Source of the DNA: a virus
Reading direction: 5' to 3' (one strand)
UHGV virus genome: UHGV-1685692
Length of the DNA: 43,420 nt
In this document: in pieces, positions 39,167-43,420 of the stretch
How the letters are laid out: every line of letters begins with the position of its first letter
Numbering within the stretch: position 1 is the first letter of the stretch
Program-made: the position numbers and the translations under genes
The notes under the pieces: model-generated
The model's database searches: none
The model's input: the letters and a program-made list of their open reading frames with translations, nothing else
Told to the model about the DNA's origin: nothing

Positions 39167-39601
39167 ATGTCTGACGTCTCAACAAACCTCTATAAGAGTC
39201 AGTTGTTGGACTATTACTATCAGCGGCGCGCTGAATCGTCCATTAACAAAGGCTCTCGATTTTTAATCAGCAAGGCCGTTTTCGGTACCAGTTCACTGGT
39301 TACTAAGAAAGGAGATGGCACTTATGAGATTGGAGAACTGCCAAAGGCTTTCGAGCTGGCAGAACTGACCAGTAAATTTTGCACCATCAACCTCGTCCCA
39401 ACCTACTCAGGCGGGATAATTACTGTCCGAATGGACCTTGATCAAAGCCAGTTGCAGAAAGGGAAAAACTACCCATTCAACACTCTGGTTGTTCTGGATA
39501 ACGAGAACAAGCCAATCGCCATTATTTGTGTCCAGGAAGACTCGCTGTATGTGGGCAAAACATATACCGCAGTTATGGCCATAAACACGACTACAGCATA
39601 A
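39167..39601 (+). CDS. hypothetical tail-fibre-associated protein (position of P1 R upstream of the fibre gene)
   Basis: 144-aa ORF directly upstream of the fibre gene; no motif. Confidence 0.4.
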   Translation: MSDVSTNLYKSQLLDYYYQRRAESSINKGSRFLISKAVFGTSSLVTKKGDGTYEIGELPKAFELAELTSKFCTINLVPTYSGGIITVRMDLDQSQLQKGKNYPFNTLVVLDNENKPIAIICVQEDSLYVGKTYTAVMAINTTTA

Positions 39602-39612
39602 GGATATGCTTG

Positions 39613-42600
39613 ATGAATGACGTTACAGTTGTCACATCGGTTACTTACCCATCACCCGAGTCGTTGGCTCTGGTGGCTGATGTGCAATACCACGAACCAT
39701 ATCTGTCAGCCGCGCTAAACCGAAAATTCAGGGGAATTGTTGACCCTGGATTTTATGCCGGTTTTTTTCCTAAGCCTGGCGGTGGGATGAACCTGTTAAT
39801 CACCTCAGTGGATGGTGATAAAACCGCTGGCGCGGCGTCAGTGAATATTGGTGAATTCTACCAGGTAACTATTCAGCAGCGTAAGGATATTTCTCTTGCA
39901 CTTAGCGCAGGTAAGAAATATGCAATTGTGCTGAAGGGAAGATACCTCCTTGGAGAAGATTCTTATCAGGTTAATACCGCGTCACATATTCATGCGGCTG
40001 AATTTGTTGCCAGAACCTATACCGATTCATATCAGTTAGGAGATGGAGAACTGCTTGTTTGTACGGTGAATATCCCTGCTGGCGTATCTGCTATTACTAA
40101 GGAAATGATAGATGTATCCGACCGCATCGATCTCGCGATAGGCATTGAAATTTCCGACTCTGTAACCAGTACCAGAAGTGATGTCGCTGCAAGTTCGCTG
40201 GCGGTTAAAAAAGCCTACGATCTGGCTAAAAGCAAGTATACGGCGCAGGATGCAAGCACAACACAAAAGGGATTAGTTCAGCTCAGTAGCGCAACTAACA
40301 GCGACAGCGAAACAATGGCGGCTACCCCTAAAGCCGTTAAGTCTGTAAAAGAGCTGGCTGATACCAAAGCGCCAATAGAAAGCCCGAGTCTGACAGGAAC
40401 GCCAACCGCGCCGACGGCAGCGCAAGGTACAAACAGCACGCAGATCGCAAATACAGCCTTTGTTAAGGCAGCTATAACGGCACTTATCAACGGTGCACCT
40501 GGCACTCTGGATACGCTTAAAGAAATAGCTGCTGCGATCAATAACGACCCGAATTTCAGCACAACTATCAACAATGCTCTGGCTCTTAAAGCTCCTTTAG
40601 CAAGTCCTGCATTAACGGGAATACCTACTGCGCCTACCGCTGCACAGGGTACGAATAACACGCAGATTGCTACGACCGCTTATGTAAGAGCTGCTATCTC
40701 TGCATTGGTCGGCTCATCACCTGAAGCTCTTGATACCCTGAATGAGCTTGCAGCAGCACTGGGCAATGACCCGAACTTTGCGACAACAATGACAAATGCG
40801 CTGGCAGGCAAACAGCCTCTGGATGCAACTTTAACCGCGCTTGCTGGTCTTGCGACAGGCGCAAATAAATTGCCGTACTTTACCGGTACAGACACTGTTT
40901 CCCAGACTGATTTAACGTCAGTCGGTCGCGATATCCTGGCTAAAACAAGCACACTGGCTGTTATCCAATACCTTGGTTTAAGAGAAATCGGAACCAGCGG
41001 CGAAAAGATCCCCCTGTTGAGCACAGCTAATACCTGGAGTTCTCAACAGACTTTCAAAGGTAAGACAGCGTTTTCAGCCGCTGCTACATTCAGTGCCGGG
41101 ATAGCAGGAGCCATCGAGCCGGAAGCCATTGACGGCCGGACTATTGATTTAAACGACTTGATTATTGCTAATACAGAAGCTGGATCCGTTAAATACTATC
41201 AATGCAAAACTGTCGCAGGTGGTGCAAATATTACCAATAAGCCTGACGGCGTAAGCGGTAACTTTTTGGTTCGTGTAGAGTCGATTCGTAAGACTACGGG
41301 ATCAGATTATGCGAACATGCAAACGCTGATTAACAGCGATACAAAACGTATATACGTTCGCTTTGTTGTTAATGGAAACTGGACAGCGTGGAGTCAGGTT
41401 GTTGTTTCCGGATGGGGTCAGGATGTAAGTGTTAAGTCTCTTAGTGCCGTGGCTCTTAGTGGATCTTTGACAGGTAATGCATCCACCGCCACAAAACTGC
41501 AAACAGCACGCACAATCGGCGGAGTGTCGTTCGATGGTAGTGCCAATATCGACCTGCCGGGCGTGAATAAAGCAGGTAATCAGAGCACTACCGGTAATGC
41601 TGCAACCGCTACGAAACTGCAAACAGCCCGCACAATCAACGGTGTTAAGTTTGATGGTTCTGCGAACATTTCGATACCAACAATTACGTCCAGAGGGCGT
41701 GTTACTGCGCTCACCGATGCAACACAAGGTGCTGCTACTGGATTGCAGATGTATGAGGCGTACAACAATAGCTACCCGACCGCGTATGGCAACGTATTGC
41801 ACATGAAAGGTGCGAGTGCTGCTGGTGAGGGCGAGTTGCTTATTGGCTGGAGTGGTACGAGCGGTGCACATGCGCCGGTTTTCATTCGCTCCCGAAGAGA
41901 TTACGCTGGTGCGGCATGGTCAGCGTGGGCGCAGGTATATACATCAAGGGACTCCATTCCTGGTGTGAATGCCACTGGCAATCAGAATACAACTGGCAAT
42001 GCAGCAACTGCTACAAAACTACAGACGGCAAGAACTATCGGCGGAGTTAGCTTTGATGGTACTGCGAATATTAATTTGCCAGGTGTTAATACGACTGGTA
42101 ATCAGAATACAACAGGTAATGCGGCTACTGCTACGAAGTTGCAGACTGCGCGTACTATTAATGGGGTGTCGTTTGACGGTTCTAAAAACATTGAGCTAAC
42201 TCCAAGGTCTATAGGCACGATCAACTCAACAACAATGTCTTTTAGTGGCGGTACTGGATGGTTCAAGCTGGCAACTGTAACCATGCCACAGTCCAGTTCC
42301 GTGGTTTACATAAGCCTGATTGGTGGTGCAGGGTATAACGTTGGCTCCCCGCAGCAAGCTGGTATATCTGAACTTGTTCTTCGTGCGGGAAATGGAAATC
42401 CAAAAGGTCTTACTGGTGCGTTATGGCGACGGGCATCGGTTGGATTTACTAATTTTGCATGGGTGAATACATCCGGTGATACCTATGATGTTTATGTTGA
42501 AATAGGTAATCACGCTATAGGTGTAAATATCCAGTGGGATTATACCAGGAACGCCAGCGTAACGATTCATACATCACCAACTTATACAGCGGATAAACCA

Positions 42601-43420
42601 ACCGGTCTTACTGATGGAACGGTATATGTCATTTACAGTTCGCACATTAAACCGACTGCCACGGATGTCGGCGCATTACCAATAACCGGAGGAAATCTCA
42701 AAGGCGGTTTAACGGCTACTGGTGAGATCATTTCAAAATCGGCGAATGGTCTGCGCATTGCCTATGGGAGCTACGGATTCTTTATCCGAAACGATGGTTC
42801 AAACACATATTTCATGTTGACCAATTCGGGTAATAGCCTGGGAACCTATAATAATTTAAGGCCGCTTATCATTAACAATGCCAATGGTACTGTTACGATC
42901 GGTAATGGACTCAATGTTACTGGCGGCATCAATGGTAGTTTGAACGGTAATGCTGCAACTGCAACAAAACTGCAAACAGCACGCACAATAGGCGGAGTGT
43001 CATTCGATGGTAGTGCCAATATCGACCTGCCAGGTGTGAATAAAACAGGTAATCAGAGCACTACCGGCAATGCTGCAACTGCAACAAAACTGCAAACAGC
43101 ACGCACAATAGGCGGAGTGTCATTCGATGGTAGTGCCAATATCGACCTGCCGGGCGTGAATAAAGCAGGTAATCAGAGCACTACCGGTAATGCCGCAACC
43201 GCAACGAAACTACAGACTGCACGCACTATCAACGGTGTTAAGTTTGATGGTTCTGCAAATATTACTTTAACTGCTGCTAACCTTGGCCTGAGCGATTCAA
43301 GCGGATATGTTGGGCGTTTGGTGAATACCCGGGTTTTCACTTCATCAGGTACGTATACCCCAACCCCAGGAACAAAACGGATCAGGGTCACAATAACGGG
43401 CGGCGGTGGCGGAGGGGGCG
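39613..43420 (+). CDS. tail fibre protein (S/gp37/gpH-like), 3' end beyond the window; not listed in the ORF track because no stop is reached
   Basis: Hand translation from ATG 39613 is open through 43419 (more than 1269 codons); contains the fibre motif QKGLVQLSSATNSDSETMAATPKAVK, seven Phage_fiber_2-type repeats (GNAATATKLQTARTI.GV.FDGSANI) and a terminal ...GTKRIRVTITGGGGGGG. Confidence 0.8.
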   Translation, partial: MNDVTVVTSVTYPSPESLALVADVQYHEPYLSAALNRKFRGIVDPGFYAGFFPKPGGGMNLLITSVDGDKTAGAASVNIGEFYQVTIQQRKDISLALSAGKKYAIVLKGRYLLGEDSYQVNTASHIHAAEFVARTYTDSYQLGDGELLVCTVNIPAGVSAITKEMIDVSDRIDLAIGIEISDSVTSTRSDVAASSLAVKKAYDLAKSKYTAQDASTTQKGLVQLSSATNSDSETMAATPKAVKSVKELADTKAPIESPSLTGTPTAPTAAQGTNSTQIANTAFVKAAITALINGAPGTLDTLKEIAAAINNDPNFSTTINNALALKAPLASPALTGIPTAPTAAQGTNNTQIATTAYVRAAISALVGSSPEALDTLNELAAALGNDPNFATTMTNALAGKQPLDATLTALAGLATGANKLPYFTGTDTVSQTDLTSVGRDILAKTSTLAVIQYLGLREIGTSGEKIPLLSTANTWSSQQTFKGKTAFSAAATFSAGIAGAIEPEAIDGRTIDLNDLIIANTEAGSVKYYQCKTVAGGANITNKPDGVSGNFLVRVESIRKTTGSDYANMQTLINSDTKRIYVRFVVNGNWTAWSQVVVSGWGQDVSVKSLSAVALSGSLTGNASTATKLQTARTIGGVSFDGSANIDLPGVNKAGNQSTTGNAATATKLQTARTINGVKFDGSANISIPTITSRGRVTALTDATQGAATGLQMYEAYNNSYPTAYGNVLHMKGASAAGEGELLIGWSGTSGAHAPVFIRSRRDYAGAAWSAWAQVYTSRDSIPGVNATGNQNTTGNAATATKLQTARTIGGVSFDGTANINLPGVNTTGNQNTTGNAATATKLQTARTINGVSFDGSKNIELTPRSIGTINSTTMSFSGGTGWFKLATVTMPQSSSVVYISLIGGAGYNVGSPQQAGISELVLRAGNGNPKGLTGALWRRASVGFTNFAWVNTSGDTYDVYVEIGNHAIGVNIQWDYTRNASVTIHTSPTYTADKPTGLTDGTVYVIYSSHIKPTATDVGALPITGGNLKGGLTATGEIISKSANGLRIAYGSYGFFIRNDGSNTYFMLTNSGNSLGTYNNLRPLIINNANGTVTIGNGLNVTGGINGSLNGNAATATKLQTARTIGGVSFDGSANIDLPGVNKTGNQSTTGNAATATKLQTARTIGGVSFDGSANIDLPGVNKAGNQSTTGNAATATKLQTARTINGVKFDGSANITLTAANLGLSDSSGYVGRLVNTRVFTSSGTYTPTPGTKRIRVTITGGGGGGG
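41461..43260 (+). repeat. seven copies of an about 120-bp tail-fibre repeat unit (two as a near-identical tandem pair)
   Basis: Units begin near 41461, 41581, 41985, 42105, 42940, 43060, 43180; the copies at 42940 and 43060 are almost identical at the nucleotide level; they also generate spurious antisense ORFs sharing AEPSNLTPLIVRAVC. Confidence 0.75.

Follow-up and report, generated by a model that had tools for sequence, protein, structure and literature searches.

The closest described counterparts of the fibre gene analysed here are the S genes of phages P1 and P7, which occupy the same place, after sit-bplB-bplA-16-R. P1 has an invertible distal segment, the Cin-invertible C segment, in which Sv/U and Sv'/U' lie between cixR and cixL, together with cin, and P1-like plasmids with C-segment loss and truncated cin have already been reported (PMC6906374). 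A second point of reference is the fibre gp24 of cyanophage Pam3 (7YFW, 7YPX), a minimal 280-aa fibre with an alpha-helical shaft, a C-terminal, distal domain of the Gly_rich_2 family (PF21722), and a chaperone gene (gp25) directly after its own. The distal domain of gp24 has been proposed to recognise the host receptor, and its GGGGxGG motifs are elements of a packed lattice, not linkers (PMC9608196); mutations that alter host range have been mapped to the corresponding domain in the fibre of a Klebsiella phage (PMC12671077). T4 gp34 and the Mu fibre protein S share a single module with the gene, and the S16 gp38 adhesin and the glycine-rich domain of ALK/LTK are likewise listed among the closest known systems.

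We examined the end of a 43,420-nt stretch of viral DNA (UHGV virus genome UHGV-1685692; "the window" denotes this whole stretch). Positions 39613-43420 very probably represent the 5' 88% of S, the gene for the tail fibre, from an Escherichia coli phage-plasmid of the P1-like (Punavirus) group, encoding a modular fibre in which the C segment has been replaced.

Results

Translation of 39613-43420 on the plus strand gives a single open frame of 1,269 codons with 0 stops, which runs off the window and comprises the first 1,269 of what would be 1,435 codons. The original prediction of a very long tail fibre gene missed by the open reading frame (ORF) track was thus correct, and the frame was left out of the listing solely because ORFs running off an end are omitted. 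The antisense ORFs listed in this region had been dismissed as repeat artefacts; they have no Pfam match, but several (40036-41024) lie outside the 120-bp repeat units, and they are most simply taken for shadows cast by the long frame on the sense strand.

The preceding ORFs (32726-36466, 36463-36822, 36819-38252, 38249-39088 and 39167-39601) follow the order sit-bplB-bplA-16-R-S annotated in P7, and the tail operon of identical relatives carries the Pfam marks SLT, Phage_P1_Gp16 and Phage_P1_tail_fiber_R. The last of these ORFs (39167-39601, plus strand) is gene R, encoding the 144-aa P1 tail-fibre attachment/assembly protein (PHROG 2032, E 8e-84; PF26881, Phage_P1_tail_fiber_R, in relatives). 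Homology to the annotated P7 promoter places the late promoter LPs upstream of R-S at 39118-39137 (plus strand): window positions 39080-39180 and P7 positions 5468-5568, which hold the annotated -22 and -10 elements of LPs, agree in 98% of columns. By analogy with the P7 annotation, R and S would be transcribed together from LPs.

Over its first 1,448 nt, a stretch that takes in the b1/b2 repeats and a cixR without differences, gene S is 93.4% identical in DNA to that of P1 and 94.7% to that of P7, the P7 value having been measured on the identical copy of a relative (L010, GCA_014903925.1). Beyond about 86 nt past cixR the window sequence diverges from both. The proximal portion corresponds to Sc, the constant, baseplate-proximal N-terminal part of P1/P7 gpS (39613-40974, plus strand; P7 Sc, 6001-7361 of L016, and P1 Sc). 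Within it, a Pfam Phage_fiber_2 repeat (PF03406, E 2.7e-27; 40255-40374, plus strand; best stretch aa 215-254) holds the conserved fibre motif that had been recognised in the frame, KGLVQLSSATNSDSETMAATPKAVK, at aa 219-243 (nt 40267-40341). Two 74-aa (222-nt) units follow at 40381-40824 (plus strand), 69% identical in amino acids and 63% in nucleotides, which are the b1 and b2 repeated elements annotated in the P1 record M81956.

The distal portion contains seven units of 40 aa (120 nt), as originally counted, starting at nt 41473, 41593, 41995, 42115, 42946, 43066 and 43186 and grouped 2+2+3. On the plus strand, cluster 1 (GNAsTATKLQTARTIgGVsFDGSANI...) occupies 41473-41712, cluster 2 41995-42234 and cluster 3 42946-43305; one copy of the unit is also present in P7 gpS. 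The units had further been taken for Phage_fiber_2 repeats, which would have required seven matches to PF03406; two stretches only were found, and the 40-aa units (aa 621-1231) did not belong to this family when compared with its profile. A domain at 42640-42873 (plus strand) is homologous to the C-terminal trimerisation domain of T4 gp34 and to part of Mu S (PF21446, Gp34_trimer, aa 1010-1087, E 1.3e-27, 97.1 bits against a gathering cut-off of 27). Its sequence matches in the PDB are 5YVQ (Mu S, E 7e-35) and 4UXE, 5NXF, 5NXH and 9X3R (T4 gp34, E about 1e-20); the rest of the protein has no sequence-level match to gp34 or Mu S. No family was assigned to the globular inserts between the repeat clusters.

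Two adjacent units of cluster 3 differ at 4 of 120 nt (96.7% identity), in agreement with the near-identity noted earlier, although their codon-aligned starts are 42946 and 43066, about 6 nt from the 42940 and 43060 first given. Tandem Repeats Finder reports this region (42945-43226) with period 120, 2.3 copies, 93% matches and a score of 494, and a repeat search of the window returned a 201-nt family of four copies. The distant unit at 41473 is 92-93% identical to both members of the pair, and the final unit of each cluster is far more diverged (55-68% over 120 nt). Recent duplication or gene conversion, as proposed from the near-identical pair, fits the differences in unit number among near-identical relatives. 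Cluster 1 has 2, 3 or 4 units in these, and clusters 1 and 3 can also be fused into one of 5 units; among plasmids with an identical 1,246-aa Sit, arrangements of 2+2+3, 3+2+3, 4+2+3 and a single 5-unit cluster were found (5-9 units in total), and fibre length ranges from 1,024 to 1,515 aa among otherwise near-identical plasmids.

It is possible, though the less probable reading, that the count of seven is itself an assembly artefact: short-read assembly may have merged further units of cluster 1, or the contig may simply end in the repeats or the G-rich run. Over the 18.9 kb upstream, the complete plasmid NZ_CP020522.1 (L009) agrees with the window at 99.99% identity, yet it has four cluster-1 units against two here. 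In two draft scaffolds (L010 and L012), gaps of 100 N fall precisely in cluster 1, the remainder being about 100% identical to the window; in window coordinates the gap flanks overlap by 89 and 119 nt. Four draft contigs of relatives (L011-L014) stop inside or just past S. However, another complete plasmid (L002, NZ_CP034959.1) also has 2+2+3, which shows seven units to be a natural state, and the frame is unbroken through all clusters. An artefact would in any case touch unit number alone, leaving the nature of the gene unaffected. As unit number varies (5-9) and drafts break here, the count of seven needs confirmation from reads.

The window ends in ...GTYTPTPGTKRIRVTITGGGGGGG, so that the description of a sequence ending in poly-Gly holds for the window but not for the gene, which goes on in relatives. 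Wherever L010 has been sequenced, over about 19 kb, it matches the window at 100% identity; its gene S runs 166 codons beyond the window edge, to ...GICIIEEFA and a stop, for a total of 1,435 aa (975 aa in P7, from a gene of 2,928 nt). Downstream lie a Caudo_TAP gene of 136 aa, a remnant of the 5' end of cin (78% identical) and then holin genes. The RefSeq annotation of two complete relatives gives the same sequence of a tail fibre gene, a tail-fibre-assembly gene, a recombinase pseudogene "missing C-terminus" and holins. We infer from its relatives that the gene in the window would continue as in L010, with the same 3' end, chaperone and cin remnant.

A decaying gene in a defective plasmid prophage, truncated for example in the glycine-rich domain, would be quite unlikely. 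A more distant relative, the viral contig L005, does have a premature stop in that domain, 32 codons past the equivalent of the window end and followed by unrelated DNA; in another (L008) an IS-type transposase gene lies just downstream, and P1-like plasmids often carry damaged tail-fibre regions (PMC6906374). On the other hand, the 1,269 codons are free of stops, the late promoter and the tail genes ahead of S are intact, and four relatives, including the 100%-identical L010 (with L003, L009 and L011), have intact fibre genes with a chaperone gene. The 3' end of gene S is thus likely to be intact, judging by these relatives.

The poly-Gly stretch (43399-43419, plus strand) is the first glycine-rich motif of a C-terminal Gly_rich_2 domain, whose first 26 codons, placed by the PF21722 match of relatives, occupy 43342-43420 (plus strand). 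In relatives this domain starts about 19 residues before the poly-Gly and reaches to the stop. PF21722 spans residues 21-209 of the 212-aa C-terminal segment of L010 and aa 1283-1471 of the 1,474-aa L003 protein. Scores are 55 bits for the L010 continuation, 41.7 for L003, 44.6 for L002 and 56.7 for P0100, a fibre of an E. coli prophage, and 26 for a Pam3 gp24 fragment (gathering threshold 24.3 bits); the window's own 26 domain codons gave no PF21722 match. P7 gpS as examined has no such tip.

A profile built without Pam3 sequences matched the Pam3 fibre (7YPX/7YFW) across the whole domain (E 5e-12), at about 28% identity to the tip here. [quoted passage not shown] This was a monomer model from an alignment that included four Pam3-like sequences; an earlier model of a protein nearer to the window had low confidence (pLDDT 44). 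Close relatives thus provide both the domain family and the fold of the tip. Among 35 homologues, conserved glycine motifs alternate with variable stretches. A structural match of the tip to S16 gp38 (PDB 6F45), a polyglycine-II sandwich adhesin, was sought and not found.

It had been suggested that the poly-Gly is a flexible hinge before a separate receptor-binding tip, perhaps with an invertible segment and recombinase beyond the window. Hinges do occur in long fibres, P1 itself has its invertible distal segment, and, as the window stops at the glycine run, nothing in it alone contradicts a hinge. The genes of all relatives that reach this point intact nevertheless end 166 codons past the window edge, and the remainder is one Gly_rich_2 domain; the homologous GGGGxGG motifs of Pam3 gp24 are packed rather than linking, and the relatives have neither an intact invertase nor a second cix site. 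A hinge is therefore extremely unlikely, and the glycine run belongs to the structure of the tip. By analogy with Pam3, the terminal glycine-rich domain is probably the receptor-binding tip of the fibre.

A solitary cixR, ATCCAATACCTTGGTTTAAGAGAA, lies in frame at 40963-40986 (plus strand), encodes ..IQYLGLRE.. and is identical to the core of P1 and P7 cixR. No second cix site was found in the window, in the loci of relatives or in the complete 95-kb plasmid NZ_CP020522.1. In each of three relatives (L010, NZ_CP127308.1 and NZ_CP020522.1), a single cix site accompanies one TAP gene and what is left of cin, a stump or a pseudogene. The relatives thus differ from P1 and P7 in having no Sv'/U' alternative, no cixL and only a stump of cin. 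An invertible C segment, with inverted cixL, alternative Sv'/U' and intact cin, would lie past the window end and was not found in the relatives; the recombinase of an invertible segment, which the original prediction proposed to look for downstream, is absent there, a cin remnant and one cix site being all that is left.

In the junction to the tip module (..NLGLSD..; 43279-43296, plus strand) a cix-like half-site, AACCTTGG, is present in degenerate form. Elsewhere, too, this in-frame LGL junction stands ahead of the tip module: other fibres read VIQYLGL and then SDASGYVGRW, and a Mu-like prophage fibre has a good cix-like site, TCGAAAACCTTGGTTTGGGAGAT. The junction octamer alone is not rarer than chance (4 found against 1.4 expected). 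We consider that the LGL junction may be linked to site-specific recombination.

If the solitary cixR were still active, a Cin-family invertase acting in trans could recombine it with cix-like sites elsewhere and so swap the distal module. Its 24-nt core is perfectly conserved in the window and all relatives, including the otherwise different fibre gene of L005, and the tip module elsewhere starts at an in-frame cix-like site. But cixR lies within coding sequence (..VIQYLGLRE..), which may be the sole cause of its conservation; neither the window nor the complete relative plasmid has an inverted partner; the half-site at the window's junction is degenerate and its octamer unexceptional; and no isomeric arrangements occur among the relatives examined. 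Continued activity of cixR is thus very unlikely.

The module is found outside P1-like plasmids. In the 308-aa fibres of E. coli prophages with a Mu-like baseplate (P0100 and relatives), the tip is 88% and the downstream TAP 87% identical to those here, and the module starts at the same in-frame ..NLGL.. junction; the tip and TAP cassette there forms a complete 308-aa fibre. These fibres differ in being short, with a Mu-S-like N-terminus and no 40-aa repeat clusters, and in belonging to chromosomal prophages with Mu gp45-48-type baseplate genes. Public records carry wrong names for homologous fibre genes: "carbohydrate kinase" (often, for the P0100 type) and "beta strand repeat-containing protein".

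Discussion

We propose that gpS would form a modular trimeric fibre, in which Sc (aa 1-454) joins the fibre to the baseplate and a long shaft follows, with clusters of 40-aa units alternating with globular inserts of roughly 95-135 aa and a T4-gp34/Mu-S-like trimerisation domain. A C-terminal TNF-like and glycine-rich (Gly_rich_2) domain would cap the fibre, the poly-Gly at the window edge being its beginning. By analogy with Pam3 gp24, the glycine-rich motifs would pack on one another as a rigid lattice, with the intervening variable loops forming the distal surface that binds the receptor. The same domain that ends a minimal fibre in Pam3 here caps a shaft of about 1,240 aa, and the chaperone gene is of the Caudo_TAP type (lambda Tfa/Mu U), whereas Pam3 gp25 is built differently, from two domains.

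The Cin-invertible C segment of P1 appears to have been replaced by a single fixed distal region. As a solitary cixR and a cin stump are left, the fibre would not be varied by inversion, and shaft length would now be changed by homologous recombination between near-identical 120-bp units. More speculatively, and in our view improbably, variation may have moved to unit recombination, which tunes shaft length and keeps or drops inserts, together with exchange of the tip-chaperone cassette at in-frame cix-like ..LGL.. sites between unrelated prophages, with invertases acting in trans. If true, the solitary cixR, with its perfect conservation, would still be in use as a docking site and no fossil.

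The finding is real but ordinary, and matters little beyond correct annotation. Because short-read assemblies break or collapse at the repeat clusters, fibre lengths taken from draft genomes are not to be trusted. Gene S would determine the host range of its P1-like phage-plasmid, and such phage-plasmids spread resistance genes among Enterobacteriaceae. The cassette of tip and chaperone offers itself as a module with which delivery particles based on P1 could be retargeted. As a fixed glycine-rich tip stands in for the Sv/Sv' tips between which P1 can switch, the host range is predicted to be single and to differ from that of P1.

A P1-family tail fibre gene

The very long fibre gene anticipated in the original prediction is borne out by a frame of 1269 codons with zero stops on translation (39613-43420, plus strand), which the ORF list skipped only because it excludes ORFs running off an end. 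The conserved motif KGLVQLSSATNSDSETMAATPKAVK lies at residues 219-243. Upstream are the P1 tail genes sit, bplB, bplA, 16 and R, and at 39118-39137 the window retains the late promoter that precedes R in the P7 annotation. The window also codes for a DnaB-type helicase, a double DNA methyltransferase, RdgC, a Rep initiator and ParA, and is part of a P1-like phage-plasmid. Gene S, the tail fibre gene of P1 and P7, shares 93.4% (P1) and 94.7% (P7) nucleotide identity with the first 1448 nt of the frame, a part that also holds the b1/b2 222-nt repeats of the P1 constant region; similarity to both phages turns patchy beyond about 86 nt past the crossover site cixR. The long distal region is common all the same: it occurs at a coverage of at least 80% in 23 PLSDB plasmids, and its 3' 2.5 kb does so in 43 of 5426 complete E. 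coli genomes. We conclude that the tail fibre gene is real and that its repeats are as first described.

Pfam matched none of the other ORFs tested in this region (seven antisense, two out-of-frame), and the sense frame is supported over its entire length. The antisense ORFs are best read as shadows of the long sense frame; calling them repeat artefacts was only partly right, since several fall outside the 120-bp units.

Elsewhere on the minus strand, three tRNA genes (anticodons CAT, TGT and GTT) lie at 5280-5355 and 7356-7509. The same set is found in a complete relative plasmid, and the CAT gene is annotated as tRNA-Ile in the near-identical plasmid NZ_CP020522.1. The BplA homologue beside the fibre gene is named 'bleomycin hydrolase' in RefSeq relatives.

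The 3' end and loss of inversion

The original prediction had called for the gene's 3' end to be sought beyond the window. A window-specific 75-mer had no match among the genome contigs searched and matched two metagenome contigs (L006 and L007), neither identical to the window. An exact 73-mer from the window end matched one viral contig, L005 (IMGVR_UViG_2579778873_000001), which was ruled out as the window's contig: it belongs to another phage, whose fibre N-terminus differs. Its related fibre gene (7313-11758, minus strand) has extra 74-aa b-unit copies and 3+2+4 units of 40 aa; a premature stop interrupts its glycine-rich domain (..TPTQNS), unrelated DNA with a 148-aa ORF lies beyond it, and its tip looks truncated by rearrangement or insertion.

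Looking up the 1246-aa upstream tail protein Sit recovered seven P1-like contigs encoding an identical protein. One of these, the gapped scaffold GCA_014903925.1 (L010), is 100% identical to the window across all of the roughly 19 kb of sequenced overlap, counted over its sequenced parts and reaching the window's last base. There the frame runs for 166 further codons to ...GICIIEEFA and a stop, giving a full protein of 1435 aa. The 3' end is thus located in a relative, and the statement that the gene ends in poly-Gly holds for the window but not for the gene itself, which goes on past the edge.

In L010 the fibre gene is followed directly by a 136-aa Caudo_TAP chaperone gene, then by a remnant of the invertase gene cin (about 260 nt sharing 78% identity with its 5' end), then by holin genes. 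RefSeq gives the same order in two complete relatives: tail fibre, tail-fibre-assembly gene, 'recombinase family protein, missing C-terminus' and holins. A scan of a complete 95-kb plasmid found one cix site only and no intact invertase. In the relatives, the invertible-segment recombinase that had been suggested is thus reduced to a 5' stump of cin, beside a solitary cix site, and in this lineage one fixed distal region has replaced P1's invertible C segment. Truncated cin and a missing C segment are frequent in P1-like plasmids, as already published (PMC6906374).

The remaining site, a 24-nt cixR identical to the crossover site of P1 and P7, lies inside the fibre gene at 40963-40986, kept although the relatives lack a partner site and retain no more of cin than a stump. 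This 24-mer also occurs in the otherwise different fibre gene of L005 (10082-10105, minus strand).

Repeat units and their number

A motif scan (GNAaTATKLQTARTIgGVsFDGSANI...) recovered the seven predicted 40-aa (120-nt) units, in clusters of 2+2+3 starting at 41473 and 41593; 41995 and 42115; and 42946, 43066 and 43186. Units were defined by this motif, and BLAST self-comparison of the protein gave nothing useful. With Tandem Repeats Finder, 42945-43226 scores 494 as an array of period 120 (2.3 copies, 93% matches), and a repeat search returned a 201-nt family in four copies. As predicted, two adjacent units are nearly identical, those at 42946 and 43066 differing at 4 of 120 nt; the unit at 41473, some 1.5 kb away, shares 92-93% identity with each of them, and the final unit of each cluster is much more diverged.

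The Phage_fiber_2 label given to these units did not survive: that family matches only two stretches of the protein, the better at residues 215-254, and therefore cannot cover seven units. No family was found for the 40-aa unit in Pfam, NCBIfam or solved structures, where the best hit, the phage L Dec protein (E 0.06), was not significant; NCBIfam had no match for the fibre or chaperone. P7 gpS contains one copy of the unit. Segments of about 95-135 aa between clusters match no family, and a 'knob' label for residues 501-620, 701-794 and 875-1010 was dropped as no result supported a family. Residues 1010-1087 are homologous to the T4 gp34 trimerisation domain and to part of Mu protein S. From general fibre biology, the units may form a trimeric, beta-structured shaft.

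Comparing unit counts across relatives, another check proposed at the outset, showed that they differ among plasmids encoding an identical Sit protein. The window has clusters of 2+2+3 (inferred length 1435 aa), L011 has 3+2+3 (1475 aa) and the complete plasmid NZ_CP020522.1 (L009) has 4+2+3 (1515 aa). In L008 (GCA_029194705.1, 16888-21973) the whole stretch between clusters 1 and 3 is missing, and one five-unit cluster joins the glycine-rich tip directly (1024 aa). This loss and the differences in unit count are the outcome expected of unequal homologous recombination between units that are nearly identical, and the length variants thus support the recent duplication or gene conversion originally proposed. 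Downstream in L008, an IS-type transposase gene (rve domain) sits where the chaperone gene would be.

The count itself calls for some caution. Over 18.9 kb L009 matches the window at 99.99% identity, and it differs by exactly two units. Two draft scaffolds otherwise 100% identical to the window, L010 (gaps at 3978-5088, 9067-9166 and 18864-18963) and L012 (16305-16404), have a 100-N gap exactly in cluster 1 of S; the flanks overlap in window coordinates, and the gaps are probably unresolved repeats and not missing sequence. Several draft contigs also terminate within or just after S. Weighing these observations against the complete plasmid L002, which is likewise 2+2+3, we regard seven units as plausible for the window. 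The fibre of L002 (NZ_CP034959.1, 9001-13701; 1566 aa) also carries, after its last repeat unit and ahead of the glycine-rich tip, an additional unassigned domain of roughly 130 aa (..PASPTGWLKTGNNGESITTAQL...YNTKNKPTTTD).

A glycine-rich tip

The C-terminal ~190 residues of the relatives' fibres belong to PF21722, Gly_rich_2 (41.7-56.7 bits against a Pfam cut-off of 24.3). In a single-sequence search of PDB sequences, the glycine-rich segment gave a weak (E 0.1) end-to-end match to the tail fibre gp24 of cyanophage Pam3; the Pam3 fragment itself belongs to PF21722. A profile including Pam3 sequences matched by construction and was discarded; a Pam3-free profile of 35 homologues matched the Pam3 fibre over the whole domain (E 4.8e-12). 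A search seeded with the Pam3 fragment returned four proteins only.

For structure we used P0100, a complete 308-aa fibre 88% identical in the tip domain, whose AlphaFold model has pLDDT of 90-98 across most of that domain. The model of P0024, a protein nearer the window's fibre, reached pLDDT 44 from a 29-sequence alignment of mostly near-identical members, and its Foldseek matches lend weak support only. Neither model had S16 gp38, the textbook polyglycine adhesin, among its best structural matches, and we cite it just as a more distant analogue of the glycine-rich tip.

In Pam3 the domain forms the fibre's distal end, a TNF-like beta-sandwich extending into loops whose GGGGxGG motifs stack as a lattice and whose less conserved distal tips are proposed receptor binders (PMC9608196). 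Host-range mutations of a Klebsiella phage fall in the equivalent domain of its fibre (PMC12671077). Across the 35 homologues, conservation falls on the glycine motifs and variation on the stretches between them. The original prediction placed a glycine hinge before the tip, but Gly_rich_2 begins at 43342, some 19 residues ahead of the glycine run; the run at the window edge is therefore no hinge but the tip's own first structural motif.

In chromosomal prophages the same domain occurs in complete 308-aa fibres, encoded downstream of baseplate genes of the Mu gp45-48 type, and the chaperone gene there is 87% identical to that of L010; in metagenome contig L007 it adjoins the sheath gene of a different phage type. 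Such prophage fibres (P0100 and about 80 similar clusters; L017, 6001-6927) are widely entered in public databases as 'carbohydrate kinase', which, like 'bleomycin hydrolase', looks like a misannotation.

In every case the tip module starts at an in-frame ..LGL.. junction (VIQYLGL/SDASGYVGRW in other fibres). At this junction the Mu-like prophage has a good cix-like site, TCGAAAACCTTGGTTTGGGAGAT, and the window a degenerate half-site (43279). The tip cassette may have been captured at a Din-family crossover site, a reading kept tentative because the junction octamer AACCTTGG alone is not rarer than chance within the window. Capture of this kind is in line with the classical view, reportedly due to Sandmeier, Iida and Arber from work on Min and Cin, of tail fibre genes as mosaics joined at such sites. 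A near-perfect 20-nt palindrome, GTGAATACCCGGGTTTTCAC (43321-43340, codons ..VNTRVFT..), lies where the glycine-rich module begins and has a core, ATACC-CG-GGTTT, similar to Din-family crossover sites; it may simply be conserved coding sequence.

Public records already contain identical or near-identical sequences, loss of the inversion system has been described in print, and Pam3 provides the precedent for the tip's domain family and fold. Mildly new are the documented polymorphism in unit number and the explicit link of a widespread E. coli fibre tip to the Pam3-type domain. The gene is an ordinary gene S of the P1 family, from a lineage in which a fixed glycine-rich tip and its chaperone have taken the place of the invertible tip.
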